Shown here one piece after another: positions 154-64,000 of a stretch of 64,000 nt of DNA (position 1 is the first letter of the stretch; every line of letters starts with the position of its first letter). The translations under genes were made by a program, and so were the position numbers. Source of the DNA: Amoebophrya sp. A120 (Eukaryota; Protista; Dinoflagellata). The stretch is taken from assembly GCA_905178155.1 (NCBI GenBank), contig CAJINV010000002.1, positions 3,849,838 to 3,913,837 of the forward strand. Reading direction: 5' to 3'. The notes below the pieces were generated by a model. That model saw only the letters and a list, made by a program, of their open reading frames with translations, was not told the origin of the DNA and ran no database searches.

Positions 154-3100
154 CACAACTACCACTACCACGACCACCACCACGACCCACCCGTTACTAC
201 CCCGGGGTTTTGATCTGCAGCTGAACATATCAAATGCAAAAGTGTCTGGGTCTGGAAGAATGCAACTTGTGTGTGATGCTGCATTTGGAAGTCTAAAAAA
301 TTTGTGTTGCATGAGCAGCAAAAGGAGAGGGCATCTGTCATGCGGAGTAGGCGGGAAGAATCCCTTTAAATAATTGTGATGCTAGAAGGGCATGCATCTG
401 AGACATCAGGGCTCATGCAAACCGTGCATGACAATTTCCAGACCCGGACATTTTTGCTTTTGATAGAACATTCCCACAGCTAATGTCGCCGATGCGCTCG
501 CGGATCCGGACTTGGCAAACGCAATGATAGGACAGTGCACAACTCCCCCTCCCCCTCATTGGGATGGTATCCGCAGCATTGCAAGTTCTGGCAGAAATGT
601 AGCTTTTGCATGACAGACAAATTTACGACTGATTGTAGTGCTGTTTCGGCTTCGGGAATCTGTCATGCATAGTAGTGGCACAAGGCAGAAGGTGGAGTTG
701 GTGTTTTGCATGAGAAATGAGAACGAGGGGGAGTTGTGCAGTGTCATAAACGAAGGCCGCGGTTGTGAAATTTTTGCAGACCACAGCGGGGTTGAGCGAC
801 CTCACTATGGAACAGGTGGAAGACTTAGAGATTAGGCCGAAGGAAGGGACGCAACCACCCAACGTAGAAGTGGAAGTGACTTTTCAGCTGCGGGTATTGT
901 GAGGAAAAGCGTCCCCAAGAACCCAGAGGAAAGATTTGGGGATTTTTTCGCTACACAAACCTAGAAGTTTTTGGAGTCAACACGCATGACAGTTTATTTG
1001 GCGTCGGAGTGTAAAAGCTGTGTTTCGTAAAAGTGCATCCACAATAAATTTCAAAACACCGCTAGAAAACGTTTCTTATGGGGCTGCGCATGAGAAACAC
1101 TTTGAGATTGCAGGTTCTTCGCGTGGCAAGTTCATGGGGTTTTCTGACGTTTTTCCTCAGGATAGCGGGTTGAGCCAGACCTGGTTGACCAGGTCAATGC
1201 AGTTTGGAATCCCGACGAACCGATGGCACAGGGTAGCGACGCACTGGCTGCGTTGGGGAGTGCGCTCAAAGAGAGCGTGAATGAGAACGACGAGCTAAAC
1301 ACAGACATGACGGTGCCGGAGACTGGGGGTGTGGAAACAGTCATTGTGACAACGACGACAATATCCAGTGGATAATGATGATGTCGTGCTCTTTGGGTCT
1401 GGAAAATAAATGAACTTGTGATGCAAGCCTGGGCAGGATGTCTGTGCGCACTGCAAGACGCAACCAAGCATGACAAGTTTCTCAGCTCCTATGTTTTATT
1501 CTTGCGTATAATTCCGCATCGCAGGAGTGGCAAACTGTGTTTTTTCCTGACAGGCATTCTTCGTGACCATATGCGTCTTCACAGCAAATGCAGGATCATG
1601 CCAGACAAGCAGGACAAAAGATCTAGCCTTTTTCCGGACCCAAAGATCAATATTTCCGAATCCATAGACCACCACGACGACCCTCGATCCAAACAGTTCC
1701 CCACCGCCCACGCAGCTCCGGGCCTTGCAATTTGGTCTCAACGCGGGGGAAACCAAGACAACCGAGGAAAGCCAGGCGCTGCTTGCCAGCGCGGATTTCC
1801 GGAATGCGATTGTGATCGGGTTGCGAACGTTTTTCGTGGAAAAAAATCCGGAATTGAGTGAGGATTTATCGCTGGAAGACTTTCACCCCGTGGACATCAG
1901 CTTGGCGAGTGGCGGTGGTGCTGCGTCTGCTCTGTCGTCGTTCATACAAATGAAGCAGAAAAAGACTGGTCTGTGGTCCAGCACGACAACACGGGGCAGT
2001 AGGCTTCTACAGGAGGAAAGAAGAAGTGGTTCAAAAAGAACTGCTTTTACACCATCACCTACACGGACTTCGCCCTCATCTCCTTCCCTACCTCACACAG
2101 CGGACGAGAGTCCTCACAACGAGACTACTTTCGCTAGTGTCAAGAAAAGCAGAAAACCGCGGAAACTTATCAGGGCTGATTACGAAGAGGGTGATCTTCA
2201 TGATTTGCAGCAGCAAGAGCAAAGAGTTCTTGTACGCAGCAGAAGTGAAGCCGAGTCTTCTTTTCTGGAGGAAGACCACAGCGAAATAAATGCAAAGGTG
2301 GCTTTGAAGAGGATGAAGAGCAGCTTGGCCGTGAATGTGCAGTTCGGCATAACGCCCAGCTCCGCTGATCTGGAACAGAAACTGAACAATATCAAAATGA
2401 AAAATCCCCCCTCCCCATAGTGAAAGCGCATCCATCTGAAAATTTGTGATGCAGATTTGTGACCACAAATCTTGGTACAAATCTTGTCTGTCTTGCAAGA
2501 AGGCAGGTCCAGGCTGCCCGGCACGTTAAGCGGGCGATTTGTAATGCTGTAAGGCCTACAGGGCAACCGTCTTCCATGCTAGGCGCCTACGCCAAAAGGC
2601 CCCTACCTAGGCTCACGATCTGCGTGCGGTGCTCTACTGCAACACAAATTTGCTTTGTGTACTGAAATACAGCATCACAAATTTCGTTTTCGATATGGGG
2701 TGGTGGCTTTTTTCACTTTGATAAACAATGTTTGGCCTTCAGTCCCGGCCGGGTCCATCCCCACGCCAGCGGACGAGAGCACGCTGGGCTCCGCGGCTGC
2801 CATGTCATATCAAATGCAAACATGTCTGGGACTCGAAAAACTTGCGATGCGGAGCTGCGAATAAGTTAAATCGGAACAGTTGTGCGGGCAGCCAAGCATG
2901 ACAAGTTTTATTTAAAGCGCTCCCCTAATATAATTGCTACTGCGCATGACAAATTGCGTTTCTGCCCGCGGCCTCGACGAGAAGCTGCTGCACTTTTGTC
3001 GGTTATGCAATACAAGCAATGTTGCCAGATAAGCATGACAAGCTCCGCTTTTGCTCTAGACCCACACGACAGATTTGCATAATGCATAGGTCGAGCCTGG

Positions 3101-7679: not shown

Positions 7680-10600
7680 ATGCCGGAAGTTCTGCGCCTG
7701 CCGGCGATGATCCCGTACTACTGCCATCGGCAGGCTCCGGATCCGATCACGGTGAATATCAAATGCAAATATGTCTGGGTCTGGAAGAACGCAACTTGTC
7801 ATGCTAATTCTGGATAGTGCAAAAATCTGTGTTGCATGATCACCAAAAGCTGTCCACTTTTGACCAAGCTGAGAGGTAGTTTCTCATGCAGACGAGGCAT
7901 GATAGAGGTCGGCGTCGGGGAGAATCTGTCATGCTGGGTCATGTATGACAGACCTCACGCGTCATGAAAAACCTGCATGACAAGTCTTCCAACATTCCAG
8001 ACCCAGACATATTTGCATTTGATAGCGAATCTGGAAACGCAGAGCTCCTCTTCTTCAAGCTCGAAGAAAAAGGAATCCTACGGGAGTCGAATAGGTACTT
8101 GAGCTACACCGTGTAGAAGTTCCTGAAATTTTTCTTTTTACGATGCGTAGTGCAAGGCCGCGGGAGCACAAATCGTTGTCATGACTCCAAGAACGAAGGG
8201 TGAATAAAGGAAAACAATAAAACTTAAACCACATCAAAACAGCGAAACAGCAGAAGTGCGCGTTTGACAACTTAGAGCAGGCCTACTGGTTTGGTGGCCG
8301 CGACGAGCGGTTCCGCACGAAGCGCCCCGAGCGGTTTGTCATGCTGCCGCAGCTGACCTTGGAGAATGTGAAGCTCTTTCTGGTGCACTACCACGGGTCG
8401 TTGCGCAACGCCTTTAACTATCAAAATGAAAAATCCCCCCTCCTCGTATCAAAATGGAAATTTGTGATGCTGATTTGTGGTCAAAAATCATTTTTGTCTT
8501 GCCTATAGGGCCAAAATGAGCTATGTGGGTCATTCCAAAGTCAATCTGTCATGCGCTTTCGGCTACTGCAAACCTGTTTACCATGGGTAATTGCTAGAAG
8601 CCTTCTGCATAGTACCCAAACAGGCTCCGACAATGCCGCCAAGCACTTTCTGCAAGAGAAATCAGATCTGTGTACGCAAATCCAGCATCAGCAACTTCGT
8701 TTTGATCATATGGGGAAGAGGGATTTTTCTTCACAATATTAACGCGATGGATTTCATTCGAAACGGGTCGATATCGCCGATGGAGTGGTCCGAATCCGTG
8801 TGGGGGATGATAAGGAGCAAGCGGGGGCATGACATGGACCAACACAATTTCAGTACACTGTTTTATTGTTGTAGTACCGATCTTCGGGCATCGGCATGCG
8901 CATGAGCATGACAGAGTCTGTTTCTCAACCCTGGTTCGCATGACAAATCGTATTACTATTATCCAAGAACTCACCTAATAAAACAAAAACTACCCAGCCG
9001 AGCTTCCCCGACGGCAGTACGATATCATGATGAACAAACTGTTCCGCCTTATCGACTTTGACGGCAGTGGCGAAATCTCGTTTGACGAATTCTCCATACG
9101 CAGTGCAAAAGTATCGTATGTAGTGAGGTCACCGAACGGTTCTAGCCAGGGAGTTTTTTTGACAGCTACCCTCAAAAACGGCCGGCAGTTTTCAAGCGGC
9201 CGGAAGCGTTTTTTGACATAAAACATTTTCAATTATCAAGTGAGCGGGGCTTTGCCATCAACCAAGCCCGGTCGAAAACTATCGATTCGCACTTGATAAA
9301 ACGACACAGGGGAGCCGGCAAAAGGGGCGCCCTTCTGAGGCGCCCACCGCCTTGGTTTCTGGCGATTTGGGGCGCCCAAAAAGGGGCGCGCAAAAAACGC
9401 GCCCAAAATCAGAACAGCGAAACAGCATGGCACGGCCGCGATTTCGGAGCATTTTGGGCCGCCGCTAAAGCGGCCGCCTTTTCGCCGGTTTTAGAGCCTG
9501 GGAAGCTTTTCAAAAAGCGCCGGCGTGAAAAATAAAAACGCGAAAAATAAAAAGCGCGCAAGACGCGCAAAGCCAATCCGCATGCTATCGGCCCGGTTTT
9601 TCTTCGCTTTTTGGGCGCCCCATGTGGCACCCGGATCGGCCCCATAGCATCGGGGCTGGCTTTCGGAAAGGAATTTTGGAAATGTGCCAAAATTTGCGAC
9701 GTTTCCCATGTGGCCGCCATACCGTGCGGCATAACGTTACTCGCGGTGGTATGGCGAGCCCATAAAAAGCAAAGCCGCGGCCAAGACTTCGGTCGGCAAA
9801 AAAACGCCCACGACCTCACTACCCCCGCCCCGGCGGCTATATTTGGTACTCGTAATATAAATGCATTACAAATTTCCTTAGCGTGAGAAATGCAAATGAA
9901 ATTTGTAATGCTGATTTACCTTAAGAGAAAGATGTGTAATGCATGATTGCAATACGAGTACCGTGCGATACTTTTGCACAGAATACTCCAATGCGCACGA
10001 CGAGGTGTTTCACAACCCGCACATGTTCACGAACCAGCGCGACAAGGAGATGGAGGAAGCACTGCACGCGACCACGTTAGCGGATGAGCTAGAGGAGCAG
10101 CGGCGCATATCCCACGAAAAAACTGTTTCACTGTGATGATTTTGCAAGATCTGCATCACAAGTTTGTTACACATGACACTGAAAATCTGTCATGCGCGCT
10201 TCCCGAGGGAAAACACGCTTGAAAATCCAATGTCTTGCAGGTGTAGCAAGACAAATACTTCTGTGTTCCATTTTCTGCATCACAAGTTCACAGTGAAACA
10301 GTTTTTTCTTGCGATAGCGCAAGGACCACATGCGCTCGGAAATGGGAAACACCCGGAGTAGCAAGACGGTGAGCAACGAGGAGTTATTACTTCGGGGGTT
10401 CTATCAAATGCAAAAATGTCTGGGTCTGGAACTTTGCTCGACTTGTCATGCAGGTTTTCCATGACCCATATGATCTGAAATGGAGGACCTAGCATGACAG
10501 ATTCCTTGAGATCACTATCATGCGTATCCTGCATGAGAAACTGCCTCTCAACTTGATCAAAAGTGGGCAGCATTTGGCAATCATGCAACACAGATTTTTG

Positions 10601-12289
10601 CGTGATTCAGAGTTAGCATGACAAGTTCCAACCTTCCAGACCGAGACATTTTTGCAGTGCATAGATTGTCGCAAGAAGAGATTGAGATCGACGAGGACGA
10701 GAAGAACCGCCGCGCCTTCACCGCAGTGTTACTGTCGAAATACGAGAATTACGCATTGCAAAAGTACTATGTATCGTAGTAGTATGAATTCTTGCATCAA
10801 AAAGTTAGAAGTTTCTTTTATCAGGAAAAGGTGGTCTGTCATGCAGGCACAGAAAAAAGTAGAGGATTTGTCATGCTGTATTGAAGGTGCAAAGTGCGGT
10901 CGTAGTACTTTTGCGCAGCATAAACACTTCGACGAGGCGTTCAAACAACTAGACGTGAACAATTCCGGTGGGTTGTCCCCCGTGGAGTTCCAGACCTATG
11001 CCTGTGCAAATATGTCTGGGTCTGGAAGAATCCAAACTTGTGGTCATGCTAAATCTGAAGCGTGCAAAACCTGTGCTGCGTGACGCGCAAAAGCTACTTC
11101 TACCCACTTCCTGCCACCAAAAAGGCGAATTTCTCATGCAGAATAGGCATTAAGAAGCTGCTACAAGAAACAGATTTGTGATGCTACCGGGTGCAGCATT
11201 CTTTCCAGACCATCTTCGCTGTCCACGAGATGCGTGACAAACTTTTGTCTCTACTTCCAGATATCCAGACATATTTGCACTGGATAGGACCGCCTGCCAG
11301 CGGATTCGGTTCGAGGGGGAGTGGCGGCCGATTTTTCAGCACTTAGACCAAGATAAAGACGGGGAGGTGTTGAAGTCCGACTTCACCATACTCGTGCGGC
11401 CACCGAAAAAGGCGATAGACGCGGCGCGAAAGGCCAGTGAAGACTTCCGGAACTATCGCAAGAAAAAAGGGTTTCACTGTAAACTTGTAATGCAGAAAGT
11501 GTATCTGAGAAGTGTTTCTCTTGCTACACATGCAAGACAATGGCTTTTTAGATGTGTTTTCCCTCAGGAATCTCGCATGGCAAATTTTCCCTGTAGTGTA
11601 GAACAAGCTTGTGATGCAAAATGACTATGCAAAATCCTTACAGTGAAACACTTTTTTCGTACGATAGGAACTATTCGAAATTTAACGCGGAAAAGGGAAC
11701 CATGAAGCCAGAATCGCTCCTGCCGAGACATGTACTATTTGCGTTTCCTATTCCAGTTTGAAAGAACAAGAAGCTGTTTCGTTAACCCCTAGCTAGGTTT
11801 TTAGTGCAGTGAGAGTTCTGATGCTGTCCTCGTTGTGAATCTAGAGTAAGACGAACAACAAACAGCGGCTCGTCATAACTTTTTGCTTCAGACAAATTTA
11901 TTTGTTTCTGTGGTCACTTACGCCTGCTGCGCATGACAAATGAAACAAAATCATTCTCGTCCTAGGTCTACTTCCGGCGGAACCTGCCCCACTTGGACAA
12001 GCAGTTGGGCACTTTCTCCCGCCTCCCCTGTCGCCGCATGGACACGGCGTTCCAACCCTCGGAGCTGCCCGGAACGGACACGATGAATTACTCGCCGGAT
12101 CTGGGTCCCGGGTCGTACATTCTCCCCTGGGATGAAGATTTTGAGTACGGGAAGGAAAAAAAATCGAAGGCCAAGCTCGTCGGCAGAGTTACGAAATCAG
12201 CGGGGAACAGCCCCAGTGACGATTCCGAGCCGGTGGGATCTAGTACAACCTCGAGCAGAGGGAGACCGCCATTCAACAAGTATTTCTGA
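7680..12289 (+). CDS. EF-hand calcium-binding protein (4 EF-hand-like loops); 8 introner introns and 3 GT-AG introns
   Basis: Spliced frame contains AFNAMDFIRNGSISPMEW, LFRLIDFDGSGEISFDEFS, AFKQLDVNNSGGLSPVEFQT, FQHLDQDKDGEVLKSDF; ATG 7680, TGA 12287-12289. Confidence 0.8.
7757..8024. mobile_element. Introner family A
   Basis: DR gtgaa/gcgaa. Confidence 0.9.
8095..8242 (+). other. Probable canonical GT-AG intron
   Basis: ag|gtactt...aaaacag|cg joins the frames and removes in-frame stops. Confidence 0.55.
8419..8738. mobile_element. Introner family D
   Basis: DR ttaac/ttaac. Confidence 0.9.
8853..8997 (+). other. Probable GT-AG intron with vestigial inverted repeat
   Basis: a|gtacactgttttatt...aataaaacaaaaactacccag|cc restores the frame (NFTELPRRQYDIMMNKLF). 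Confidence 0.6.
9097..9985. mobile_element. Introner family E expanded by nested insertion
   Basis: DR ctcca/ctcca. Confidence 0.85.
9120..9845. mobile_element. Nested non-autonomous element with asymmetric TIR and 3' hairpin (Helentron/Helitron2-like) inside a family-E introner
   Basis: GTAGTGAGGTC 9120-9130 / GACCTCACTAC 9812-9822, followed by CCGCC-cc-GGCGG; splits host TIR gtatcgta|ctcgta. Confidence 0.6.
10108..10316. mobile_element. Introner family F (TIR TATCNCANGAAAAAACTGTTTCACTGTGA)
   Basis: DR gcgca/gcgca. Confidence 0.9.
10402..10663. mobile_element. Introner family A (opposite orientation to 7757)
   Basis: DR ggttc/gattg. Confidence 0.85.
10750..10922. mobile_element. Introner family E, divergent
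   Basis: TIR gcaaaagtacta; DR agaat/aacac. Confidence 0.7.
10997..11286. mobile_element. Introner family A
   Basis: DR agacc/ggacc. Confidence 0.85.
11454..11666. mobile_element. Introner family F (opposite orientation to 10108)
   Basis: DR ggaac/ggaac. Confidence 0.9.
11732..11965 (+). other. Probable canonical GT-AG intron
   Basis: cat|gtacta...cgtcctag|gtc joins to the frame of ORF 11993..12289. Confidence 0.65.
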
Positions 12290-32012: not shown

Positions 32013-32063
32013 CTCTGAACATTGCTTTCTTCAAACCTTCTCTGAACATTGCTTTCTTCAAAC
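32013..32063. repeat. Short tandem duplication (24-bp unit x2)
   Basis: ctctgaacattgctttcttcaaac twice. Confidence 0.8.
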
Positions 32064-38396: not shown

Positions 38397-39124
38397 AGCT
38401 GTCTACAAATAAGTAGAAAGAGAACTACGCATTGTTATGGCATGACAATGAAACACTCTCAAGCTGTTCAAGATTGATTTTCTCCAAAACATCAGACGCG
38501 CAAGGACCTGGACCTGTCCAGTCGCTTCAACCTGGGTTGGTTCTACGTGCTGTGGCCCGATTATCCTGGCGAAGAATACAATTGTACGTCTACTTATTTT
38601 TACCCAAAGAATAAGAAACACGGTTGTGACGGATCATGTGGGTGCAGCTTAGTAACCGAAAAAAAGTCAGGTGCTGTCGTGTTTGTCATGCGGCTTGATG
38701 ACAGACTGTGCAGGTGCATTATCGTGTGAAGAAGCTTGCTGTCTTCACCTTCCGCCTGCCCCGGCAAAAATGAAAGGCGCTGTTTTCTGGTGACAATATT
38801 AAATGATGTACAAAAAATTTCCTGTCCATACCGTTGCGGACAACCCAGAATTTTATCAGGCGTGCGAACGGGCAGGGCGAAATCTGGCCGCCATCACGAT
38901 AAAATATCACAAAACGGTACTACTAGGAAAGATGGGAATTGTTTTCGGCGTTTTATTTTTACCGCGTAGCTGTTGTTGATGCATGTTCATGTAGTACCTA
39001 ACGTTCTATTGTGTTCTTGTCATCGATCCCATTTCTTGCTGGTACGTCGCGGCGACTGCAGTGACTAGAAGGCTTAGTGGTTGTGGCGCTAAGGAGACAT
39101 CAGTAAATCAACTGTAAGCACAAA

Positions 39125-50200: not shown

Positions 50201-53200
50201 ATGTCGCCTCCGACTGCGGCCACATCGTATCTTCAAAACCGCCACCGCAGGGAACTGCTCCTGGTGCAGAAGTCACTGCTGCGGCAGTGGTCGCGGTCGT
50301 CGGCCTACTACCTGCAGGTATCAAATGCAAAAATGTCTGGGTCTGGAAGAATGCAACTTGTAAAGCGTATTTCAGAACACGGAAACGTCTCTCATGCATA
50401 CGTAGCAAAAGCTCCCACTTTTTGTCAGCAAAATAGGGGACTTGTCATGCGGATTCGGCATTGCGGAAGGTTCTCGAAACCTGTAATGCTAGAGCTTCCA
50501 TGCTAGACCTTCTGTGTCATGCAAAAACAGCATGACTCTTCCAGACCCAGACATTTTTACAGTTGATAGCAGGCGCTGCTTGACCAGTCCAAGGTGGATG
50601 CGATGCAGGATAAAATTGTGGACCAGTATGCCGCCTATCCTTTTTACCGATCGTGCCGGCCGCAGCATGGGTATGAGAGTGCACAACTCCCCCTCCCCCT
50701 CACTTGTATGGCATGAACAGCAATTCAAACACCAGCACACGTGGAGGCTATGCATGACAAACTTATGCACATGCGCCTGATGTAGTACTGTTTGGGCTTT
50801 CGGAATTTGTCATGCAAACAGTGCCACAGGGCAGCGAATGGATTGGGGGTTTTGCATGACAAATGAGGGGGAGGGGGAGTTGTGTACTCTCATAATGGAC
50901 GGCCACAGCTCGGCGGCGGAGGTGGAGGCCCGCCTGTAACCGAGCTCCTCCTCTGGCTGGATCCGGGCGAAGCTGGGTTAGCCCTGGGTGGCGACTACTC
51001 TTTCCACCGTGGCTATGGAACTGTCAGGATCGAAATCGACAAAGTTGAAAGGATTTGCCATGCATAAAATTGATATCAGTTGGAGCCTCAGTTTGCAAGC
51101 GGCGCCGACAAATTTCGGGAGCACCCAAATCCAGTCTGTCAGGCTGTTTGGGCAAAGAAGACTGCTCCTGTCGTGCTACTCTGGCAGCAGCACATTGCAC
51201 ACCCCTAAACAGGCTTGCCATCGGTCTCATTTGCCTGCTCCCCAACACAGGCCACACGGGCCCTACATTTTATGCATTACAAATTATTTCAACTTTGACG
51301 ATTTCGCGCCTGACGCTTCCATAGTGGCCAGATGGAGAAAAGGTACCGGGAACGCGTAGGCTTAGTATCCCATGAAAAAACTGTTTCACTGTGATGATCT
51401 TTCAAGATCTGCATCACAAGTTTGTTACACATGACACAGAAAATTTGCCATGCGCGCTTCCCAAGGGAAAAGACGCTGAAAAATCCAATGTCTTGCAAGT
51501 GTAGCAAGACAAATTGTTCTGTGCTCTATTCTCTGCATCACAAGTTCACAGTGAAACAGTTTTTTCTTGCGATACTTAGGGTCAGAAGACCATTGGATCA
51601 ATCAGCCCATCTCTGCTCCTATCAAATGTAAAAATGTCTGGGTTTGGAAGAGTCACGCTGTTTTTGCATGACACAGAAGGTCTGGCGTGGAAGCTCTAGC
51701 ATCACAGGTTTCGAGAAGCTTCCGCAATGCCGAATCCGCATGACAAATCCCCCATTTTGGTGACAAAAAGTGAGCGCCTTTTGCTACCAATGCATGAGAG
51801 ATTTTTCTGTTTTCTGAAATGCGCATCACAAGTTTGGACTCTTCCAGACCCAGACATATTTGCATTCCATAGCCCCCGCAAATAAAGACGCGCCAGGGCC
51901 AGCGTGGATTACGGATCATGAAGCCACAATAAATAAGCCCGACCACGACCCGGCGACGCGAGAAGAGGTTGGAGATCAAAGCCCCATGATGTCGTGGTAT
52001 GGGGCCCCCATACCACACTGGGCCAGCGAGGCGCTAGACAAGGTGCAGGAAACGCACGAGCTCTTCGTTTTGATGCTACAGGGGATTTATCAAATGTAAA
52101 AATGTCTGGGTCTGGAAGAATGCCAGGTTTGTCATGCACATTTTGCATGACTCCTGATGTCTGTGATGCATGCCCTAGCATCACAGATTTTGTGAGGGCT
52201 TCCTGATGCCTGTACCGCATGACAAATGCTCTTTCCGTGTAGCAAGACCTGGACTCTCTTTGCTGCTCATGCAATACAGATTTTTGTAGAATAGAAAATC
52301 AGCATGACAAGTTGGATTCTTCCAGACATCCAGGGATTTTTACAGTTGATAGGATTTATCAGACCCAGTTCGGTTCCACGTTAGTATTATATTACAATGA
52401 AAAATGCCCCCACCCCCGAACTTGAAAGCATTTGTATTGCAAACCTTTCCAAATGAAACATTCGCCCTCTTGCATGTATCAGCATCACAGATTTCCGATC
52501 GTGAATAACAAAAATTTCTATTGCAAAAGATCCCAGCAAGAGCGGTGCTTGTCATGTAAGCGATGCGAAACACGACTAGAATCTGCATCAGAAAGATTCA
52601 TACTCCTTTCATGCATGACAAAAAGTTTTCATTTGGAAACTTCGCATCACAAATTTTTGCAACTTTGGGGTGGGGGGCACTTTTCACTGTAATATATTAA
52701 CGACAGATCAACTTGAACATATTAAACAAGCCACTGTACGACTACAGCTAGAAGCTCCACCTGGAGCAGTAGGGGGTGAAGAAGGCACTACTACTTCCAA
52801 TGCGGGTCGTCAACCGCTGCTGCTCGACGGGACGATGACAACTGCTATGAGTGGTTTTGCTGCGCCGCCGCCGCGCAACTCCACAACAACAACCGGCGTG
52901 ATGTCCAGTACCGACACTTTCAATAACCCGGCGCCAGGTCTTCTGCAACCAGAAGGCCTGCTAGAAGTTGAAGACGACGTCGCAGCTGCCGTGGGGCGGT
53001 TGTTAGTGCAGGACGTGTTGCGGGCGGGCATGTGGAGGAGAAAGTTCGCAGACGCGCTGCTGCTGTCGCACCCAAGGCTGTTGATGCAGCTTGACAACAA
53101 CTTGATTCAGGCAGAGAAAAATAAAATGATCGGGATCAAGAACCCAGCGGCCCACGCGAGTGAAGGTTGGGACGAGATGACCCGTCGCAACCGCCGCCAT

Positions 53201-56200
53201 GATGTGCATAACCCCTTTCTGCAGCATATCCTGAGTAAAAACGTACCCACACCAGAGTCAGGATGAGGATTTTGCAACACAAACCTACGAGTTTTGTGAG
53301 TCACGCATCACAAGTTGCACCATGCAGTGTAGTGCAGGTTAGCAAGTGCAGCCGCATCACAGATTCATCTGCTCATCCTGTTCACAGCATCACAAATTCC
53401 AAAACACGGCTGGAAATGGCTCTCATGGGGATGCGCATTACAAGTCTTCCTGTCTTTGCAAATCTGCATTACAACTCTGGTGTGGGTACGTTTTTACTCA
53501 GGATACAGCACGGCATGAGCGTGGGGGGAAAATTCCTGCTGGAAAGCAAAGAGCAAACCGCGGACACGAGTATTTCGGGCCCGCATAATGCCATGGGCCC
53601 GGATGGGGAAAGAGCAACAGAGATTTCTCTAGAGATGTTGCATGCCCATGCTGGAAAAGAGCAAGAGCTTATCACGAGAAAAAAAGCATTGTAGGTGTAA
53701 CTTTTTTGGAGGAACAGCATTACAAATTTGTCTGGCATGACAGCAAAAACCTGTCATGCGCAGACAGTACGTGAAAACGCCCTTTAATGGACCCTACGAT
53801 GCATGCCAAGCATGACAGACGCAATCATCTTGCATGTTGCGCATCACAAATTTACACTAGCCGCGTTTTTTTCTTGGATAGAGCTGAAAAGCGTGAAACG
53901 GAAACGGCTCTGGAGAAGCTGGGTGCTCCGCTTGCTGTATGAGAGTGCACAACTACTCCCCTAGTACCCCTCATTTGTATTGCATGGACAGCAACAGCAC
54001 ACGTCCTGGAATCAACGCAGCTTTTGCATCATGACAAATTCGCGAGGACCGATTCTAGTGCTGTTTCTGCTTCCGAAATTTGTCATGCAAGCAGTGCCAA
54101 ATGGCAAAGGATGGATTTGCTGTTTTGCATGACAAATGAGGGGGACGAGGGGGAGTTGTGCATTGTCATACTTTGCAAAGACAAGGGTCTTATGAACTGC
54201 AAAAGCATCGCACTCGTATAAATGCATTACAAATCTCCTCAGCATGAAAAATAAAATTTGTAATGCTGATTTGCCTTCAGAAAAAAATTGCAAGACTTGC
54301 ATTTATACGACTACGATAATTTTGCACAGGATAGGTCTATCCTCCGCCCGGTCAAAGGCGGCGAGCCGGCCTTCTTCCTGTGGCGGAAGGCGTATCAAAG
54401 TGAAAAAAACCCCCTCTTCATTCTGAAACGGGAATTTCTGTTGCTGGATTTGTGTACACAAATCAGCGCTGTATTGCAGCAAGCGCTTGCAGGCATTTCG
54501 TATAAGTAGCGTGATTAGGTATGCAAGAGGCTAGCACTCAGGCATGACAGACAGCCTTGCAGTAGGCAAAAGCGCACGACAGCTTGGCTTTGAAGGCGCC
54601 ACACGGGTCGCATTTGCCTCACATGCAAGACAAAGCTCACAAATCAGCATCACAAATTTATTCCATTGTGGAGGGGGGATTTTTCCCCACGATAAGGCGG
54701 AGGCGTTGTTTCTGCCCCCGATTGGGAACCGGTTTCACAACTACCCAGAGAAGGGGGCCTTTATTGCCGCAGAAGATGCTGAAAATGTTGTTGTTGTTGA
54801 AACCAAGAAGCATCCTCGTCCACTGTATGGGCCAGTAAATTCCCTGCCACGAGGACCTGCAGGACCACCTCTACTACCTCCATCTTCGTCGTTCTTGGGC
54901 GGGGGCAACATTCAGCAGGCGGACGACGCTCCCGATGTCGTGCTAGAGGTGACCACGCCAAGTAGATTTCTGCAACTGCCACCTCCACCGCCTGAAGTAG
55001 CAGAAGATTTTGGCTTGCTGCCTAGAAATGGGGGTCAAGCAGGGGCGACTGCGTCTTTCCTCACTGTAGCGGTTGGTACAACAAAAGCCACACCTTCGAG
55101 CGGTGCGGCAGCAGGAGCAGCAGCATCGGCCCGCCCAGACGAGGACACTACTACAGCGAGAGTCAGAGACCGAGCCTGGCTGCAAAAGCAAAACAGCAGA
55201 GCCGCAGAAGGGGAAAGGAAAGAAACTTCTACTTCTGTTGCAGATGAAGTCTTCAGCATGGTGCCAGAGGAGGACAAAAAAGCTGCTGCTGCAGTAACAC
55301 AAGCACCAGCCGCGAGAGAAGGTGCAGAAGAGGGTGCTGAGCAGCCGGAAAATGTTGACATAGGGGAAGAGGGAGGAGGACAGACAAAGAACTACTTCGG
55401 GAACGACGAAGAAGACGAGGAAGAATCTGGGCGCCCTCTTTCGCGGCGGCACAACAGCTGGTTGGGAGGGGGGAACATTAACTCGATGGGCGGCTTCCCC
55501 GTGGTCGGCCGCGACGCCCGGTTCCGGTCGGAACTCCCACTACAAATCGCGGTGCGGTCCAGTGGGGCAAGCGTGGGAAGTATCCTGTGAGAAAACGTTC
55601 CCACAGCATAGTCAAGTTGGTAAATTTGCAACACAAATCTCCAACTTTTGGACACATAGTATATGCATGACAACATTGGACTCGTAGTGTAATCCTGTTT
55701 CGGTAGTGCAGCAGTATCACAGATCTAGCGCATCATGCTGCTTGGAGCATGACAAATTCCCAAAGCCGACTAGAAGAAAATGCCTCTCATGGGGCCGCTC
55801 CGCATGAGAAATATTTTCAGCATGCAGATTCGCATGGCAACTCTGGAGTGGGGACGTTTTTACAAATGATAGGGAGTGCCGCTTTTTTACTCCCGGTCGA
55901 GCGAGACCGGGAGCTCGAGGACGAGGCGGATGAGCAAAACAGCAGGCCTATCAAAATGAAAAAAGCCCCCGCCCCATATCAAAGGGGAAATCTGTGACGC
56001 AGGATTTGTGTACACAAATGCGCGCTGTCTTGCAGTACGGCATCGCAGCCAGATCCGCAGCCTAGGGAGGGAAATTGGGTCTAGGTGCTTAGCATTACAA
56101 ACGGCTGTCCTTTAGGCCCCACAGCTAGTATGCCAAATCGCTTCCATATTGGCGCGGAAGCCTCTGCATTTGTCTTCTTGCAGGACAGACGTGATTTGTG

Positions 56201-59200
56201 GTCTCAAATCAGCAAGACAAATTTTCGCAAGCATGCCTTTTCGATATGGGGAGGGGGGATTTTTCTTCTCAATAAGGCCCGCCAGGCCCAGGGACCTCGG
56301 GGTGCGGTATCCGGATATGCTCGCGAAAGAAGAAGAGCAGTTACGAGAACTCGAGCTCTTCTACCACGCCCGGTACGAGATAATCCACGGCGAACAGCAC
56401 GCCGTCTCGCTGAAATCCGATTACGAGACAGCCATTGTATCCTGAGTAAAAATGATGTCCCCACACGACCAGAGTTGTCATGCAAATCTGCATGCCAAAG
56501 AAGTTTCTCATGCGGAGCCCCATGGGAACCATTTTCTATACCTGTTTTGGAATTTGTAATACTAGAATCAGCATGATAGGCTAGGTCTGTGATGCTTCGG
56601 AACTAGCTAAGTAAACAGGATTACACTACGAGGATAAACTTGTCATGCGAAACAACCAGGGGTGGCTGATTTGTCTAGCGGATTCTTTCCCATCTTGACT
56701 CTGGGGTGGGGCCGTTTTTGCTCAGGAGACATTGCCGCTCTTCGCCAGGATTGCACGGCTTATCGCTACCTCTCGGTCCCTATCAAATGTAAAAATGTCT
56801 GGGTCTGGAAGAATGCAACTTGTGATGCTATTTTTGGAATCCAAAAAAGTCTGTATTGCATGAGCAACAAGAGGCGTCCAGTTTTTACTCCGCGGAGAGG
56901 GGATTTCTCATGCGGGATAGGCATCAAGATGCCCGCAAAAAATTTGTGATGCTGGTGCATACATCACAGACATCACGGGTCATGCAAAATGTGCATGACA
57001 AACCTGGGAATCTTCCAGACCCAGACATTTTTACATTTCATAATCCCGCTGATGGCCCGACAGGATTTGATCCTGTTGGCGGCACGCCAGGGCTGCGACG
57101 ATATTCCGCACTACCTGCCGCTCCAGCAACAGCTCAATATGCTGTGCAAAAGTATCGTACTCGTATAAATGCAGGTCTTGCATTACAAATTTCTTTGTCA
57201 AGGCAAATCAGCATTGCAAATTTCATTTCTCATGCTGAGAAAATTTGTAATGCATTTATACGAGTACGATGCTTCTGCATTCCATACTCAATTTCACGAT
57301 GCAATTTACGAACACGGTTCCGCGGTGGCTGAGAGAGGACATTGGCGAGCAGGCGGATCTGCATCTGCTATCCCAGTCTCCGCAGTGGTCGGAGACAATT
57401 TTGGATTCGTATTTTGGGCCCAAATTTTTCGCGGAACTCGCCGCTGTGAACGCGAACTGCCTCTTTTCCCTTCTTCGGGTCTCGCGGGTGGACATTCGGT
57501 TTTCGCGCTTACTCTCCGTGCTACAAAAGGAGGAGAGCGATCGCGCCGATGTTGAACAGGAGGCCAAGGAGGATCATCAACATCTTGATGTTGATGCTGG
57601 TGCAAGAACAACTTCTACTACTGCGAAAGATGGTGCGCCGCAAGAATCGTCTTCTTGGGGATTTCTGCTGCAGAAAGAAGACGCGAGAAATGGCTTCCAT
57701 ACTCGCAGTATCAAATGTAAAAATGTCTGGGTCTGGAAGAGTCATGCTGTTTTTGCATGACACAGAAGGTCTGGCATGGAAGCTCTAGCATTACAAGTTT
57801 CGAGAAGCTTCCGCAATGTCGAATCCGCATGACAAATCCCCCACTTTGGTGACAGAAAGTGGGCAGCTTTTGCTACCCATGCATGACAGATTTTTCTGTG
57901 TTCTGAAATGTGCATCACAAGTTCGGATTCTTCCAGACCCAGACATTTTTACATTTTATACGCAGCTCCGCGGTGCGGCAAATGGTGCAAAAGGCCGTAG
58001 TATCCTGAGTAAAAACGTCCCCACCCCATAGTTGTCATGCAGCTGTGCAATGACAGGACGATTTGTAATGCGCATCCCCATGAGAGGCACTTCCAATCGT
58101 GTTTTGGACTTTGTAATGCTGTAAACAGGATGAGAAGCTCACTTTCTCATGCGGCTGCCCTTGCTAAACAGCACTACGCTACAGATGGAAACTTGTCATG
58201 CAAAACTCCCAAAACTTGGAGATTTCTGTTGCAGATTTACCAACTTCACTATGGGGTGGGAAGGTTTTTACACAGGATACGTAGCTGGCGCCGGACTGCT
58301 GCAGTTTCAGGCGATGCTTGTGCGCAACTACTTTCACTACAAAACGGAGTACCTCCCGGGCCACGCGTATGGAAGCGTCAGGTTTGAAATCGACAAAGTT
58401 GGAATGATTTGCCATGCATAAAATGCAAGGCAGGAAGTGCGTGTCTTGCCGGGATGGCAAGTGAGGCCGACTGTCAGCCTGCTTCGGGTTTGAAATAAAA
58501 CTGCTAAAGTAGCATGACAAAAGCAGTCGTCTGTGCCCAAACAGCATGCCAAATTGGATTCCGGCGCGCCGAAAATTTCTCATGCACCGCTTGGAAATTC
58601 TGCTTCCAACTGGTATCGATTTTATGCATTACAACTTTGACAATTTCAGTTCTGACGCTTCCATAACGCGGTCAAGCTGCGCATCGAGGCCGGGGATTTC
58701 CGGCAGCTGGAAGTGGCCGCTCGTGGTCTTGAAGCTACTAGTAAAACTGGTAGTCCTGCTTCTAGAATGGCAACTCGAACTACTCTATGAATTGCAAATA
58801 GGTATCGTACTCGTATAAAAGCATTGCAAATTTCCTCAGCATGAGAAATGAAATTTGTAATGCGGATTTACCTTGAGAAAAAAACTTGTAATGCATGACT
58901 GCGATTACTACGAGTGCGATACTTTTGCACAGGATATACTCCTGCTTCTACGTCGGCGCAACGGTTTTGGCAGCGGCGAATGGAGCTGCTGCAGTATCTT
59001 TCCATAGCGACCTATCAAAATGAAAAATCCCCCCTCCCCATATCAAATTGGAAATCTGTGATGCAGGATTTGTGTACACAAATCAGCTTTGTCTTGCAGT
59101 AGAGGGCTGCACGCAGATACAACAAAGCCTGGGTTGGGCCTTTTTGGTGGTGGCGCCTAGCAAGGGAGACTTATCCTCTGCACGCCATACAGCATTACAA

Positions 59201-62200
59201 ATTGCCCACAAATTCCGGCGGAGTCTCTGGCTTTGCCCTCTTGCAATACAAGGACGATTTGCGTCCACAAATCAGCATCACACATTTTTCGAAGTATGTC
59301 TTTTCAGTATGGGGAGGGGGATTTTTCCATACGATACGACCGGGGAGGACGCTACCGCCCGGCGTCGCAGAGACGTCGCCGTGGATGCGCATCTGTGGGT
59401 GGCGGCAGAAGAGGGCTCCGCTGACTATACCGAGGCGCGGTCGGAGAGAATTTTAGAAAAGGGACGATATGGATCGCATCCATATACAACTTCGGCTCCC
59501 ATCCAGCAGGAAGATCTTCTCCTTGCGCAAGATGGTAAAACTTCTCGACGACGAGGTATCCAAGGAAAAAACTGTTTCACTGTGATGATTTTGCAAGATC
59601 CGCATCACAAGTTTGTTACGCATGACACTGAAAATTTGTGATGCGCGCATTTCCCACAGGGAAAAACACGGTTGAAACTCCAATGCTCTATGCAGGTGTA
59701 GCAAGACAAATAGTTCTGTGTTGCATTTTTTGCATCACAAGTTCACAGTGAAACAGTTTTTTTTTGCGATACGAGGACCAGTGTTTCCCTTCACGATCGT
59801 CTTGCACCGCAACGACTTCTATGCATCGCAAAAATGTCTGGGTCTGGAAGGATGCAACTTGTAATGCTAATTCTGGATCGTGCAAAAATCTGTGCTGCAC
59901 GAATGCCAAAAGTTGTCCACTTTTGACCAAGTTGGGAGGAGGTTTCTCATGCAGGATAGGCATGATAGGGGTCTCACAGAATCTGTCATGCTAGCTCCTG
60001 CATTCCAGACGGCATGGATCATGGAAAATCTGCATGACAAATCTCGCAATTTCCCAGACCCAGACATTTTTGCATTTGATAACTTCTACAACTTTCGATA
60101 CTTCTATCCGAGTGCACAAGTAGAACTCGCCCTCCGTCTCATTTGGAGTGGAGCATGAACAGCAATTATAAATACAACAAACGCCAGCAGGAGGAGCACC
60201 TGCGGAGCTAGTGCATGACAAGTTTATCAGCCGACCGTAGTACTGTTTGGGCTTCAAAAATTTATTGCCATGCAAACATTCAGTGCTACAGGTTCTTGTA
60301 CAGGCGGGAAGCAACTCGATTCGGCATTTTGCATGACAAATGAGGGGCACCAACATGTTCGGGTGTAAGGAGTTCCGGGCAGTGCTCCGTGCACCCTTGC
60401 GACACCACCCCGCATCGCCCCGGGTACTTATGCATGACACATGAGGGGGAGGTGGACTTGGAGTTGTGCACTCGGATAAGTTCAATTTTGATCAGCAGCG
60501 GGGCGTGCACGATGGTGCGAATAGCCTGCGGGCGGTATCAAAAGGAAAAATCCCCCCTTCCCATACTGAAAAGGTATATTTTTGGAAATTTGTGATGCTG
60601 ATTTGTGGTCGCAAATCGTGTCTGTCTTGCAAGAAGGCAACTCCGCAGGCTCCGCCGCATTGCGCGGCCGGTTTGTCATGCTGTTGGGCCTACAGCGTGG
60701 CTGTTTTTCGTGCTAAGCGCCTAGGCCAAAGCCTCTCATCTATTCAAACTTGGTATGGGCTTACAGTTCTCTCCGGCAAGACAGCTCGGATCTATGTACA
60801 CAAATTCAGCATCAGAAGTTTCGTTTTGATATGGGGAGGGGGGATTTTTCCTTTCGATAGGCGGCGGGGGAACGAAAAATCGAAGGCGGGAGGAGCAGAG
60901 GCTTCATACAGGGTGATAATACTTCTATGCCCCCACCACCCTGTAATATTAACAAGTCTAACTACTTCTATGAGGATGGTTTTCTCTGGGATTTGAAAGA
61001 ACAGCGAATTGTTCCAGATCCAGCAGCAACAGAGAATGAAACAATAAAAACCGATGAAACAAGTACAAGTGGCACCACAAATGTTGACCAGGGCAGAACT
61101 ACTGCCTCTGCTGCACCTTCTTCAAGAACGGAGGTAGACGCCGCGGGTCCTCCCTGCAGGGACGAAGGGCAAGATATTGTGAGGAAAAATGCTCCCTCCC
61201 CATATTGGACAGGTATGGTCCTAAAAATTTGTGATGCTGATTTGTGACCACAAATCCTGTCTCTCTTGCAAGGGGGCAAATCCAAAGAATCCGCCGGCCT
61301 ATGCAGGCGATTTGTAATGCTGTTGCGGCTACATGGCAGGCCTCTGCTATGCTAAGCACGTACATCGAAACAAACCTGCGCAGGCTCAGGCTTTGCCTGC
61401 GGTGCCTCACCGCAAGACAGAGCTGATTTGTGTACACAAATCCAGCAACAGACGTTTCAATATGGGGAGGGGGGATTTTTCACTTTGATACAAGAATCTC
61501 TACCGCCGGAAGTAGACGATAGAATTATTTCGGGCGGCGGCCCGGAGCCGCTTTTTCACCGATATGCATTGCAAAAATGTCTGGGCCTGGAAGAATGCAG
61601 GACGTGTCATGCTTGTCTGGCATGACTCTTGGATCTGTGATGCGTAAGCAGGAACTGGGTCTCCTGCCTGTCATGCAAAAACGCAGTTTGCCATGCAGAA
61701 AACGAAGCACATGGCACGTGCGAAAACTTGTCATGCTTGGCTGCATATTGTAATGCGTCCACGATTCACAGATTTGCATCACAAGTTTCCAGACCCAGAC
61801 ATTCTTGCCTTTGATAACCGGCTCAAAGTCACCATTTTGGAGAAAGACGTGCCTGACGTGAACTTGGTCCGACTGCTGAGCAAGGGTGACGCCGAAGATC
61901 AGAAAATAGCGTCCGGCCGGTTTGGGCATTCCTACCAGGAGCGACACCAGAAGTGGCGCGGCTTCTTTCTGAACGATATGGATTGCAAAAATGTCTGGGT
62001 CTGGAAGATTGCCACGTTTGTCATGCATATTTTGAATGACCCATGATCTCTGTGATGCATGCCCTAGCATCACAGATTTTACGAGGCAGGCACGATGCCT
62101 CTACCGCATGAGAAATGCCCTCCCCGCGTAGCACAAACTGGGGTCCTCTTGCTGGTCGTGCAATACAAATTTTTTTAGAATCCAGAGACAGCATCACCAG

Positions 62201-64000
62201 TTTAGACTTTTCCAGACCCAGACATAGTTGCATTTGATAAACGAGTTGTGCCGGCAGTTTCGGGACTTGTTTTTCGAGAAAATAGACGACGGCAAAAACA
62301 TGGGGGGGATAAACGACGGGATGAAGAAGAACCACAAGAACCAAAATGACGGCACGCGGCAGGCTGATGAACCAGAAGAAGAAGCAGGCGTAGAAGAAGT
62401 AGAAACGACCCCGGACTGCCGGGATTTTGTGGACAGTTTCGTGTTCGGGGAAAGAATTGTGGACGACAAGAAGGACGTCGACCTGCGGATGTTGAACAAT
62501 GGCGCTGCTGCAAGAACAGCAGAAAGTCCACTTCCTCGTGGACCACGAGATAGAAGTGGTAAAACGAGAACTTCATCTCCAGCAGCTGCCCGCGCGGCCC
62601 CCACCAGTCGTGGATACCCATCATCTACTTCGCACCGGTTCTTGTACTACCCCCGGCTGAGTGCGTTTGGAAAGCGCACGTTCGAACAAACAGTCCTCAA
62701 CCAGGAAGGCCATTCGTGGTGGGACGCCCCGAATCCGCGAGCCCCCTCCTTGGATCTGATTTCGAACCCTTTCCACGGCCGCCGCATCCGCCTGCCCGGA
62801 GACGGAATCTTTATCCTGTGTGAAAACGTCCCCACCCCAGAGTTGTCATGATGCACATTTGCAATGATAGGAACGCTTGTAATGCGCTTCCCCATGAGCA
62901 TGACAGGCATAGATATCCAGTCGTGTTTTGGCATTTATAATGCTGCAAACAGGATAATCAGATGGATTTTTGATGCGGTTGTCCTTGCTAACATGCACGA
63001 CACTACGGACTGCAACTTGTCATGCGTGACTCCCAAAACTTCTGGATTTGTGTTGCTAACTTGTCAACTTGGCTATGGGATGGGGACCTTTTTACTCAGG
63101 ATAAGCTTTTCGCAGTTCTCCTTGCGCAACCAGGACTTGTTTCAGGGTGACACGGTGCCGACCGGGAACAGCATCTTCCAGCCCTTTTGGGACTACCATA
63201 CGGCTCGTCTCACCACCACAGCGGGGGCGAAGAACAAAAATGAGCCGCCTGCGGATAAACAATCTTCGAAAACACCAGCGCGGCACTCTCATCTGTCTGT
63301 CTACCAGCGGATTCAACTGGCCTCGAATCCCGTGCGTCATGAGAAGGATCTACTGATTAAACTCGCGCGGAAAGATCCAATTGGGAGTGTGAAGTTAGCC
63401 TCGTTTCAGCTGCGAAACTTTGACCCGGAGTTTCAAAAGGCGGTACTGGAAAAGGACGGGCTGGCGTTGCAGTATATGGAAATCGCCCCGCTTTGCGCGG
63501 CGCGGCCATGTTCAAACGTTTTGTTTCTTCCGGACTATGTTGCTCCCGGTAGCTCTCGTGAGCAAATGGAAATGAAGAACAGCGCAGGTGGAACAAAAAG
63601 TAAAGCATTCTCCTTTATTCCGCGCGGCGCAGCTTCCGGTTCCGACCCCCTCCCAGGGCCGTCGTCGCCGTATCAGGTCGTCGCGCAGCAGCTTCCTCGG
63701 GATTTAGCTCTACTCGCGGTGAAAAGTAACGGCCTGGCGCTTCGTTACTTGTCCCCGGAACTGCGGGCCGACGCAGAAGTCGTGAAGATGGCCGTGATTC
63801 AAGACGCTGAGGCTTTGCAGTTTGCGCACCCCAGCCTGCGGGTCTACGCGCCCTGGGAAGGTGCGTTTTCCGACGCGGGGATTTGGCCGACGGAGCTGGC
63901 AGCTATTCCGGAGCGGGGATCATCTCAAGAACACCCGGGTGGAACATCACCCGTCGTCGCGGGCCGGTGGAAATTAAGCGGGAAACATCCACCCAATGCG
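44259..64000 (+). CDS. Very large protein with DUF4116-type repeats and an N-terminal hydrophobic segment; 39 introners; runs off window
   Basis: ENGLALQYVFPLH|LRSNRDLV, QNGRALKYASAELRSDREIVQYAV, KDGLALQY, SNGLALRYLSPELRADAEVVKMAVIQDAEALQFAHPSLR; frame kept across all 39 junctions. Confidence 0.75.
45150..45418. mobile_element. Introner family A
   Basis: DR agtgg/agtgg. Confidence 0.9.
45490..45806. mobile_element. Introner family G
   Basis: DR tgcac/tgcac. Confidence 0.9.
46088..46381. mobile_element. Introner family G
   Basis: DR tctgg/tctgg. Confidence 0.85.
46444..46660. mobile_element. Introner, F-like
   Basis: DR actcc/actac. Confidence 0.85.
46712..46993. mobile_element. Introner family C
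   Basis: DR gcagt/gcagt. Confidence 0.9.
47917..48182. mobile_element. Degenerate introner
   Basis: Residual IR ctacattga/tcaatgtag; DR tcaac/tcagt; removal restores the frame. Confidence 0.6.
48529..48793. mobile_element. Introner family A
   Basis: DR agaaa/agaaa. Confidence 0.9.
49008..49173. mobile_element. Introner, singleton TIR (tatcccacagaaaaaagc.ggcagg)
   Basis: DR gtgga/gtgga. Confidence 0.9.
49370..49578. mobile_element. Introner family F
   Basis: DR ccctc/ccctc. Confidence 0.9.
50319..50568. mobile_element. Introner family A (DR permits GT-AG)
   Basis: DR gcagg/gcagg. Confidence 0.9.
50672..50894. mobile_element. Introner family B
   Basis: DR atggg/atgga. Confidence 0.85.
51014..51323. 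mobile_element. Introner family G
   Basis: DR gtggc/gtggc. Confidence 0.9.
51366..51574. mobile_element. Introner family F
   Basis: DR cttag/cttag. Confidence 0.9.
51620..51871. mobile_element. Introner family A (reverse of 50319 type)
   Basis: DR gctcc/gcccc. Confidence 0.85.
52088..52351. mobile_element. Introner family A
   Basis: DR ggatt/ggatt. Confidence 0.9.
52390..52694. mobile_element. Introner, D-like
   Basis: DR tatta/tatta. Confidence 0.85.
53227..53505. mobile_element. Introner family C with perfect 32-bp TIR
   Basis: DR cagca/cagca. Confidence 0.95.
53670..53880. mobile_element. Introner, F-like
   Basis: DR gagct/gagct. Confidence 0.9.
53938..54170. mobile_element. Introner family B
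   Basis: DR tgctg/ctttg. Confidence 0.8.
54191..54333. mobile_element. Introner family E
   Basis: DR ggtct/ggtct. Confidence 0.9.
54393..54694. mobile_element. Introner family D
   Basis: DR aggcg/aggcg. Confidence 0.9.
55581..55871. mobile_element. Introner family C
   Basis: DR ggaag/gggag. Confidence 0.85.
55949..56274. mobile_element. Introner family D (reverse of 16410 type)
   Basis: DR aggcc/aggcc. Confidence 0.9.
56438..56729. mobile_element. Introner family C (reverse of 46712 type)
   Basis: DR cattg/cattg; 3' end AGA. Confidence 0.85.
56781..57042. mobile_element. Introner family A
   Basis: DR gtccc/atccc. Confidence 0.85.
57138..57286. mobile_element. Introner family E (reverse of 54191 type)
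   Basis: DR ctcaa/ctcaa. Confidence 0.9.
57709..57960. mobile_element. Introner family A
   Basis: DR cgcag/cgcag. Confidence 0.9.
58001..58279. mobile_element. Introner family C
   Basis: DR cgtag/cgtag. Confidence 0.9.
58368..58665. mobile_element. Introner family G
   Basis: DR acgcg/acgcg. Confidence 0.9.
58786..58936. mobile_element. Introner family E
   Basis: DR tactc/tactc. Confidence 0.9.
59013..59336. mobile_element. Introner family D (reverse of 28302 type)
   Basis: DR cgacc/cgacc. Confidence 0.9.
59557..59771. mobile_element. Introner family F (DR permits GT-AG)
   Basis: DR cgagg/cgagg. Confidence 0.9.
59820..60081. mobile_element. Introner family A
   Basis: DR acttc/acttc. Confidence 0.9.
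60105..60478. mobile_element. Introner family B, extended/composite (374 bp)
   Basis: Perfect 15-bp TIR tatccgagtgcacaa; DR acttc/agttc. Confidence 0.85.
60536..60859. mobile_element. Introner family D
   Basis: DR ggcgg/ggcgg. Confidence 0.9.
61175..61490. mobile_element. Introner family D
   Basis: DR caaga/caaga. Confidence 0.9.
61563..61816. mobile_element. Introner family A
   Basis: DR accga/accgg. Confidence 0.85.
61977..62239. mobile_element. Introner family A
   Basis: DR aacga/aacga. Confidence 0.9.
62812..63103. mobile_element. Introner family C
   Basis: DR atctt/agctt. Confidence 0.85.

Follow-up and report, generated by a model that had tools for sequence, protein, structure and literature searches.

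Small transposon copies that fill the exons of Amoebophrya sp. A120 are likely cut from the mRNA in either orientation and without the usual GT-AG signals, as suggested by gene-model proteins and open reading frames. Amoebophrya is a marine parasitic protist, and the window analyzed here is a 64-kb stretch of its DNA with 95 such elements (228..63103), nearly all of them within genes. Their removal from the pre-mRNA probably depends on a pathway that reads only the two mirror-image ends of the element and cuts and joins the transcript there, a reading to which we give a probability of roughly one in two. Positions of the elements and their host genes are listed in Table 1.

Table 1. Elements and host genes in the window. 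All host genes lie on the plus strand; for element rows, + and − stand for arbitrary family orientations A and B.
Feature	Position	Strand	Remark
TAT...ATA element set (95)	228..63103		5-nt target duplications
Element, major family, orientation A	228..465	+	ORF continuity only
Element, orientation A	28706..28967	+	Junction matches P0002
Element, orientation A	45150..45418	+	Junction matches P0003
Element, orientation A	48529..48793	+	Junction matches P0003
Element, orientation A	56781..57042	+	Junction matches P0003
Sister of 28706/45150/48529/56781 group, orientation B	36729..36990	−	Junction matches P0001
Sister of 28706/45150/48529/56781 group, orientation B	39567..39831	−	Junction matches P0001
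Sister of 28706/45150/48529/56781 group, orientation B	52088..52351	−	Junction matches P0003
Sister of 28706/45150/48529/56781 group, orientation B	61977..62239	−	Junction matches P0003
Element, subfamily 7757, orientation A	7757..8024	+	No database protein, no long ORF across
Element, subfamily 7757, orientation A	33676..33940	+	Junction matches P0001
Element, subfamily 7757, orientation A	59820..60081	+	Junction matches P0003
Sister of subfamily 7757, orientation B	10402..10663	−	ORF continuity only
Sister of subfamily 7757, orientation B	27971..28232	−	Junction matches P0002
Element, orientation A	50319..50568	+	Junction matches P0003; predicted fold with ends paired, z −7.4
Reverse sister of 50319	51620..51871	−	Junction matches P0003
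Reverse sister of 50319 (90%)	57709..57960	−	Matches P0003; predicted fold with ends paired, z −9.7
Element directly after P-loop codons of AAA_11 helicase gene	16112..16363	+	ORF continuity only
Reverse sister of 16112 (88%)	33369..33625	−	Junction matches P0001, registers 0–2 only
Element	37034..37245	+	Junction matches P0001
Reverse sister of 37034 (89%)	53670..53880	−	Junction matches P0003
Element	46712..46993	+	Junction matches P0003
Reverse sister of 46712	56438..56729	−	Junction matches P0003
Element	50672..50894	+	Junction matches P0003
Reverse sister of 50672	32669..32898	−	Junction matches P0001
Element	10108..10316	+	ORF continuity only
Reverse sister of 10108	11454..11666	−	ORF continuity only
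Short-family element	54191..54333	+	Junction matches P0003
Reverse sister of 54191	57138..57286	−	Junction matches P0003
Old element, fixes register	27537..27844		P0002 fits register 1 only; register 0 gives a stop codon
Element ruling out registers 4 and 5 without annotation	60105..60478		Stop codons
Host gene of P0003	44259..64000	+	First 3106 of 4712 aa; DUF4116 in last exon; 39 elements
Host gene of P0001 (976 aa)	32219..40349	+	18 elements, 3 GT-AG introns
Host gene of P0002 (GSA120T00013940001, 1299 aa)	23911..30619	+	10 elements
Host gene with AAA_11/AAA_12 helicase domains	13384..21600	+	5 elements
FAM32A-like host gene	41745..42978	+	3 elements

Identity of the elements

The elements are non-coding inverted-repeat transposon copies of 143–374 nt, with a single one of 889 nt, and together make up 25,250 bases. 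A scan that looked for TAT...ATA ends between flanking repeats yielded 87 candidates, of which three (7118, 40627, and 47551) were dropped as spurious; ten older copies added by hand and one found by mapping the database protein P0003 completed the catalogue of 95. Statistics given on 93 elements omit the 889-nt element and the last one added, and a cut copy that ends at 153 is additional to the 95. The position matrix of the ends has the consensus TAT-N7-AAA, with T, A, and T at 98, 99, and 97% and A at 83, 93, and 89% at positions 11–13. Each element is flanked by a 5-nt target duplication, the two copies agreeing in 79–85 of 93 elements per position and in 14–23 of 93 outside it, a contrast that is partly built into the detection rule. 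The sequence of the target site is mixed at all five duplicated positions, both in the window and in the replicate set described below. Families account for 75 of the 93 elements, and 303 further copies were detected in the loci of that replicate set. Rfam returned no match at gathering score to group I/II introns or snRNAs in the 20 of 64 kb that were searched (44000–64000).

These are the introner elements of Amoebophrya sp. A120 published by Farhat et al. (2021; PMC7789003). The available text of that report describes an inverted repeat of TAT, seven variable bases, and then at least three A, together with direct repeats of 3–5 nt, a length of ~240 nt, a hairpin, and non-canonical splice sites; the same terminal repeat and short direct repeats at the exon–intron boundaries were found here. 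The database proteins P0001 and P0002 are identical to exons of the window; P0001 is named as Amoebophrya sp. A120 and P0002 carries the A120 gene id GSA120T00013940001. According to the same text, more than 60% of Amoebophrya introns are removed without GT-AG, by a mechanism that it leaves open.

Orientation of sister copies

The original prediction named nine groups of close sisters that lie as reverse complements of one another. All of its coordinates proved to be element starts with a TAT-type end and a matching right end, and minus-strand self-BLAST matches that cover most of the element link the members of all nine groups at 80–90% identity (50319/57709, 90%; 50319/51620, 89%; 37034/53670, 89%; 16112/33369, 88%; 54191/57138, 85%; 10402/59820, 85%; 52088/56781, 83%; 36729/45150, 83%; 46712/56438, 82%; 32669/50672, 81%; 10108/11454, 80%). 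Trimming 35 nt off both ends, which keeps the inverted repeats from counting in the comparison, left the nine groups as reverse-complement sisters (37034/53670 scored 0.85 reversed and 0.17 forward). Family orientations could be assigned free of conflict at each of three thresholds, with 85, 200, and 353 edges. The nearest sister in the window has the same orientation in 37 cases and the opposite one in 38.

A replicate set was obtained by a motif scan of metagenome contigs, which gave 142 loci, apparently of one other assembly, whose best BLAST hits include no exon shared with the window. Loci longer than 2 kb held 303 distinct elements, and the host strand was called for 233 of them from ORF continuity and codon scoring; the two methods agreed in 99 of 101 cases, with a codon model trained on the window genes, and the 70 elements without a strand call were excluded. 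For 216 of the 233 strand-assigned copies (loci L001–L078) the nearest sister was in the same orientation 103 times and reversed 113 times, and identity reaches 96% in the closest reversed pair. Families joined across both sets split 36:31, 16:25, and 16:18 (the three largest), 18:8, 20:5, 13:10, and 9:7, the most skewed of which reach p = 0.004 (20:5, the family of 16112, uncorrected among 11 families) and p = 0.08 (18:8). These counts show no overall bias in either assembly, and element orientation relative to the host gene is random.

Removal of elements in both orientations

That all host genes lie on the plus strand is borne out by ORFs of at least 250 aa, which cross 78 of 94 junctions on that strand and 12 on the minus strand. 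The three database proteins (P0001, P0002, and P0003) map to the plus strand as well, as do the Pfam matches of the host genes, for which only plus-strand exons were submitted. In this annotation-free ORF test each of the 94 elements was removed with 5 extra nt; with 2 or 8 extra nt, which preserve the same frame, 77 and 74 junctions are crossed, and with 0, 3, 4, or 6 extra nt 31–45. One stop-free frame of 2370 aa, likewise free of annotation, spans 33 elements of both orientations.

Taking out an element together with 5 nt reproduces the database proteins at 67 of the 67 junctions tested (of 95), including 18/18 for P0001 and 10/10 for P0002. Once 39 elements are taken out of 44259–64000 at register 1 (defined below), the translation equals the N-terminal 3106 aa of P0003 without a single difference. 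Both orientations are represented among these 67 junctions for seven of the nine predicted groups; 16112 and the pair 10108/11454 have ORF continuity, and 7757 is as listed in Table 1. The idea that the same element behaves as an intron either way around is thus upheld at the level of gene models. P0001, P0002, and P0003 are gene models of the same genome, P0003 (4712 aa) without a stated source, so that annotation bias is possible and only seven junctions discriminate register 1 from register 0 or 2. Transcriptomes underlie the A120 gene models, whose sites were confirmed by RNA, according to the available text of PMC7789003. Raw RNA runs X9 and X10 contributed 27 and 9 matching reads, nearly all of them partial and on elements and none across a junction, which favor neither outcome.

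Agreement with the proteins could also arise from annotation alone, if one orientation were poorly spliced or the genes were decaying. This is very unlikely: the single 2370-aa frame owes nothing to annotation, all 61 elements tested introduced a stop into the reading frame when retained singly, and frames would not be expected to persist around elements that are 10–30% diverged from their sisters if half of these were left unspliced. In its favor, run X3, guessed to be RNA, gave no exon coverage over the gene at 44–64 kb.

A single removal register

The register is the number of bases of the upstream duplication copy that are removed, and can be read where the two copies differ. They do so in some 35 window elements, including 27537, 34783, 24333, 46444, 50672, 61563, and 42200. 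Among 66 junctions, register 1 fits 66, register 0 fits 64, and registers 2, 3, 4, and 5 fit 61, 57, 53, and 50. One register, 1, fits all junctions when read against the gene-model proteins, which defines the predicted intron as N-TAT...ATA-NNNN. A register of at least 1 is needed at 27537 and 34783 and one of at most 1 at 24333, 27537, 37864, 38562, and 46444; 54191 misfits at higher registers only, where its flank enters the next element. Stop codons alone rule out register 0 (at 27537) and registers 4–5 (at 60105). Farhat et al. describe splice sites that are variable relative to the hairpin in A120, whereas the 1/4 register fits 66/66 here; the comparison is one of text, and Figures S14, S19, and S21–S23 of PMC7789003 may be relevant to this point.

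Registers 0–2 are the only ones permitted at 29048 and likewise at its reverse sister 33369, so the register follows the direction of the host gene and not the orientation of the element, as would be expected for a cut at the RNA level but not for excision from DNA. An excision before transcription, programmed or driven by a transposase, would make orientation irrelevant, and the symmetric ends together with the absence of evident selection for wobble pairs in the RNA would fit a DNA-binding transposase. We nevertheless regard it as highly improbable, because the asymmetric 1/4 register tracks host transcription in both orientations and because DNA contigs of run X1 continue from the exon into the element end with 0 differences at a depth of 38–47. 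Weaker evidence in the same direction is that no clean skip of a single element was seen among the 15 joints listed of 3437.

Absence of polar signals

The two TAT...ATA ends are statistically indistinguishable, in line with the symmetric features of the original prediction: comparing the 5′ end with the reverse complement of the 3′ end gave p > 0.05 at 38 of 40 positions in the window (two at p < 0.05) and at 16 of 16 in the replicate. GT-AG termini are possible in any register for only 6/93 window elements and at register 1 for 7/233 in the replicate; the elements thus lack the canonical U2 termini GT/GC...AG. The first intron base is C in 29, A in 26, G in 26, and T in 13 of 94 window introns (replicate, n = 233: G 76, A 68, C 49, T 40), and the last two bases are AG in 6/94 and 20/233. 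Pyrimidines are not in excess toward the 3′ end (0.475, against 0.518 at the 5′ side), so the original prediction that a conventional AG acceptor and polypyrimidine signal are missing agrees with the data. The polar branch point and pyrimidine tract of canonical U2 introns were not found either; a relaxed branch A may still be used.

A repeated internal motif that resembles a branch site is GCAWNAC, which lies 35–47 nt from many ends. In the window it occurs 25–65 nt from the 3′ end in 64/93 elements and at the mirror place in 49 (p = 0.04). This stronger presence on the 3′ arm was rejected as a signal, since it is gone in the 233 other copies (142 vs. 143); there, 91 of 233 elements lack the motif within 25–65 nt of the 3′ end, and two families in which it is confined to one arm are found in both orientations (16:18 and 18:8). 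The same counts do not support the proposal that this quasi-palindromic motif is needed for recognition, and it is more likely a subterminal repeat bound by the transposase.

A rewired major spliceosome offers another explanation, with U2, U5, and U6 at work and U1 lost or unrecognizable. It would take N-UAU as a mimic of GUAU, use a relaxed branch A in either orientation, and place the 3′ site 4 nt past the stem. We consider this quite plausible, if short of probable. The available text of PMC7789003 credits A120 with 83/89 spliceosomal proteins and with U2, U4, U5, and U6, U1 being undetected; the three GT-AG introns mapped here start with GTAT, GTAC, and GTAC, which resemble N-TAT, and at element position 3 the variant seen most often is C. 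Tunicates are described as relying on an altered spliceosome for introns that mostly lack GT-AG (PMC13326754), and the window bias of the branch-like GCAWNAC would point the same way. Against it, that bias failed to replicate and one-armed families lie both ways, neither a clear enrichment of G at +1 or of terminal AG nor a pyrimidine tract was seen, and the introners of Polarella, by contrast, keep GT/GC/GA 5′ sites and an orientation bias, as described in 10.1101/2020.10.14.339549.

RNA pairing of the ends

A terminal stem had been predicted to serve recognition in both orientations. Folding predicts ten or more expected pairs between the ends for 93/93 window elements in host orientation and 89/93 reversed, and for 231 in each orientation among the 233 of the replicate. 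The stem is thus predicted either way, but strict RNA pairing is not borne out, G-U pairs being as frequent as A-C mismatches in the replicate arms (527 vs. 533). The excess of G-U in the window (250 vs. 179, sign-flip p = 0.001) was rejected on these counts, as was a better end pairing in host orientation (window 27.8 vs. 25.9, p = 0.003; replicate 28.3 vs. 28.2, p = 0.5). Polarized private substitutions showed no effect of the arm (89:71 vs. 165:149, p = 0.56). Some protein-matched elements have weakly paired tips (38562, with 10 expected pairs and a TAT pairing probability of 0.0, and 24333), and the sequence of the ends may therefore be as important as their pairing. With no G-U preference and weak tips in matched elements, these folding predictions do not support a precise stem as a requirement.

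Proposed mechanism and significance

An end-directed cut-and-join of the pre-mRNA would work as follows. Since the ends are inverted repeats, the transcript would present the same 5′ end, 3′ end, and terminal stem whatever the orientation of the element. Cuts 1 nt 5′ of UAU and 4 nt 3′ of AUA would take out the element and one target-site length and so restore the mRNA. The bases at the cut (position +1 and the last two) would not be read by the removal pathway. The chemistry that we infer is a dedicated cut-and-join activity directed by the ends or the stem, similar to what has been proposed for nonconventional introns of euglenids, compared with which ordinary recognition by U1, U2AF, and a branch point seems less likely; it is favored by the lack of any constrained base at the cut and by a geometry that resembles N3CDG/CHGN5-6 of Euglena.

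The elements in A120 were known already, as were introns that work in either orientation in Polarella and Aureococcus. As judged from the gene models, orientation-free removal in a fixed register is a real and new property of this known class: a search of the openly accessible literature returned no paper describing removal in Amoebophrya that is unbiased in orientation, non-canonical, and fixed in register. Unbiased orientation, a free target sequence, the lack of polar signals, and the fixed stagger reduce the cis-code to the two ends of the element, a rule that can be checked exactly against RNA reads, by mapping lariats or circles, and with reporters, and that provides a simple way to annotate genes carrying these elements. 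The rule also accounts for the filling of exons by a transposon without cost. A 2022 introner survey permitted matches in opposite orientation, and Amoebophrya is absent from its preprint text; a 2025 survey (PMC12130899) includes A120 and describes a same-orientation filter. Such families may be divided or overlooked by searches in which copies have to align in the same orientation.

Comparison with known systems

The closest precedents for orientation are the introners of Polarella glacialis, which are likewise transposon-like, flanked by target duplications, and used as introns in either orientation (10.1101/2020.10.14.339549); either-orientation introners of Aureococcus anophagefferens are cited in the same work. 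In both, the available text has the splice sites (GT/GC/GA at the 5′ end, AG at the 3′ end) carried by the element or drawn from a target site of constrained sequence, and the classes of Polarella are biased in orientation. The window elements, in contrast, have no overall bias and an unconstrained target site, with GT-AG possible in 6/93, and a search for recruited or carried splice dinucleotides of this type found mixed target sites instead. Tunicates such as Fritillaria share with A120 transposon-derived non-GT-AG introns at genome scale. As described in PMC13326754 and PMC11282704, they keep AG-AC/AG-AT termini and a modified U2 spliceosome, whereas the terminal bases of the window elements are unconstrained.

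The nonconventional introns of Euglena (PMC12501133) come nearest in geometry. In the available text they are non-GT-AG, a MITE origin is proposed for them, their machinery is unknown, and complementary terminal motifs stand at a fixed distance from the cut, with the longer spacer on the 3′ side. The spacers are N3 and N5-6 in Euglena but N1 and N4 here, the motifs are CDG/CHG but TAT-N7-AAA here, and the purine that Euglena prefers at the start of the downstream exon was not seen in the window; the lineages are unrelated, and no mention of how sister copies are oriented was found in the available text on Euglena. The euglenid signature 5′-N3CDG...CHGN5-6|R is accordingly absent, the ends reading N-TAT...ATA-NNNN, and the likeness lies in geometry only. 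Tentatively, A120 may possess a second, non-spliceosomal system of nuclear pre-mRNA splicing that recognizes transposon ends with a fixed 1/4 stagger in any orientation and at any target. Any exonic insertion would then be silent, which would explain the spread to tens of thousands of sites, and such a system would be an independently evolved alveolate counterpart of euglenid nonconventional splicing.

Orientation and element ends

The family comprising the elements that start at 16112, 29048, 61563 and 33369, together with their copies in contig regions of an apparent second assembly, is split 20:5 by orientation (p = 0.004, uncorrected), the sole hint of a polar cost specific to one family. 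The 889-nt element, a member of the short family, is interrupted by a GC-rich insert that enters its left arm after ~22 nt and carries short inverted repeats of its own (near 9120 and at 9810–9821). Because a 237-aa frame still crosses the element despite this insert, a short terminal piece may suffice.

RNA reads of runs X9 and X10, which bear the same species label, fall on element ends only and have foreign flanks, which suggests that their source is a diverged strain in which the same element families occupy different sites.

Features discussed in the text (window coordinates)
Feature	Position	Strand	Remarks
Element, short (150-nt) family	9097–9985		889 nt; left arm split by second insert
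Insert in helicase gene	about 18430–20046		1.6 kb; apparent GT-AG ends
GT-AG intron 1, P0001 gene	37278–37458
GT-AG intron 2, P0001 gene	38343–38495
GT-AG intron 3, P0001 gene	38917–39139
FAM32A-like gene	41745–42978	+	Pfam PF08555

Other inserts and host genes

The helicase-gene insert is bordered on both sides by a direct repeat of ~34 nt, has GGGCCCC arrays at its two ends that mirror each other, and contains a tandem or inverted repeat (18981–19300). Between genes, a stretch of ~1 kb (22100–23170) has repeated ends, with similar 60–90 nt blocks near 22170–22260 and 23050–23180, and is possibly a mobile element of another kind. FAM32A is a splicing factor, and the FAM32A-like gene itself holds three elements as introns.

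The three GT-AG introns of the P0001 host gene start with GTAT or GTAC, equivalent to any first base followed by element positions 1–3 (TAT, variant TAC).
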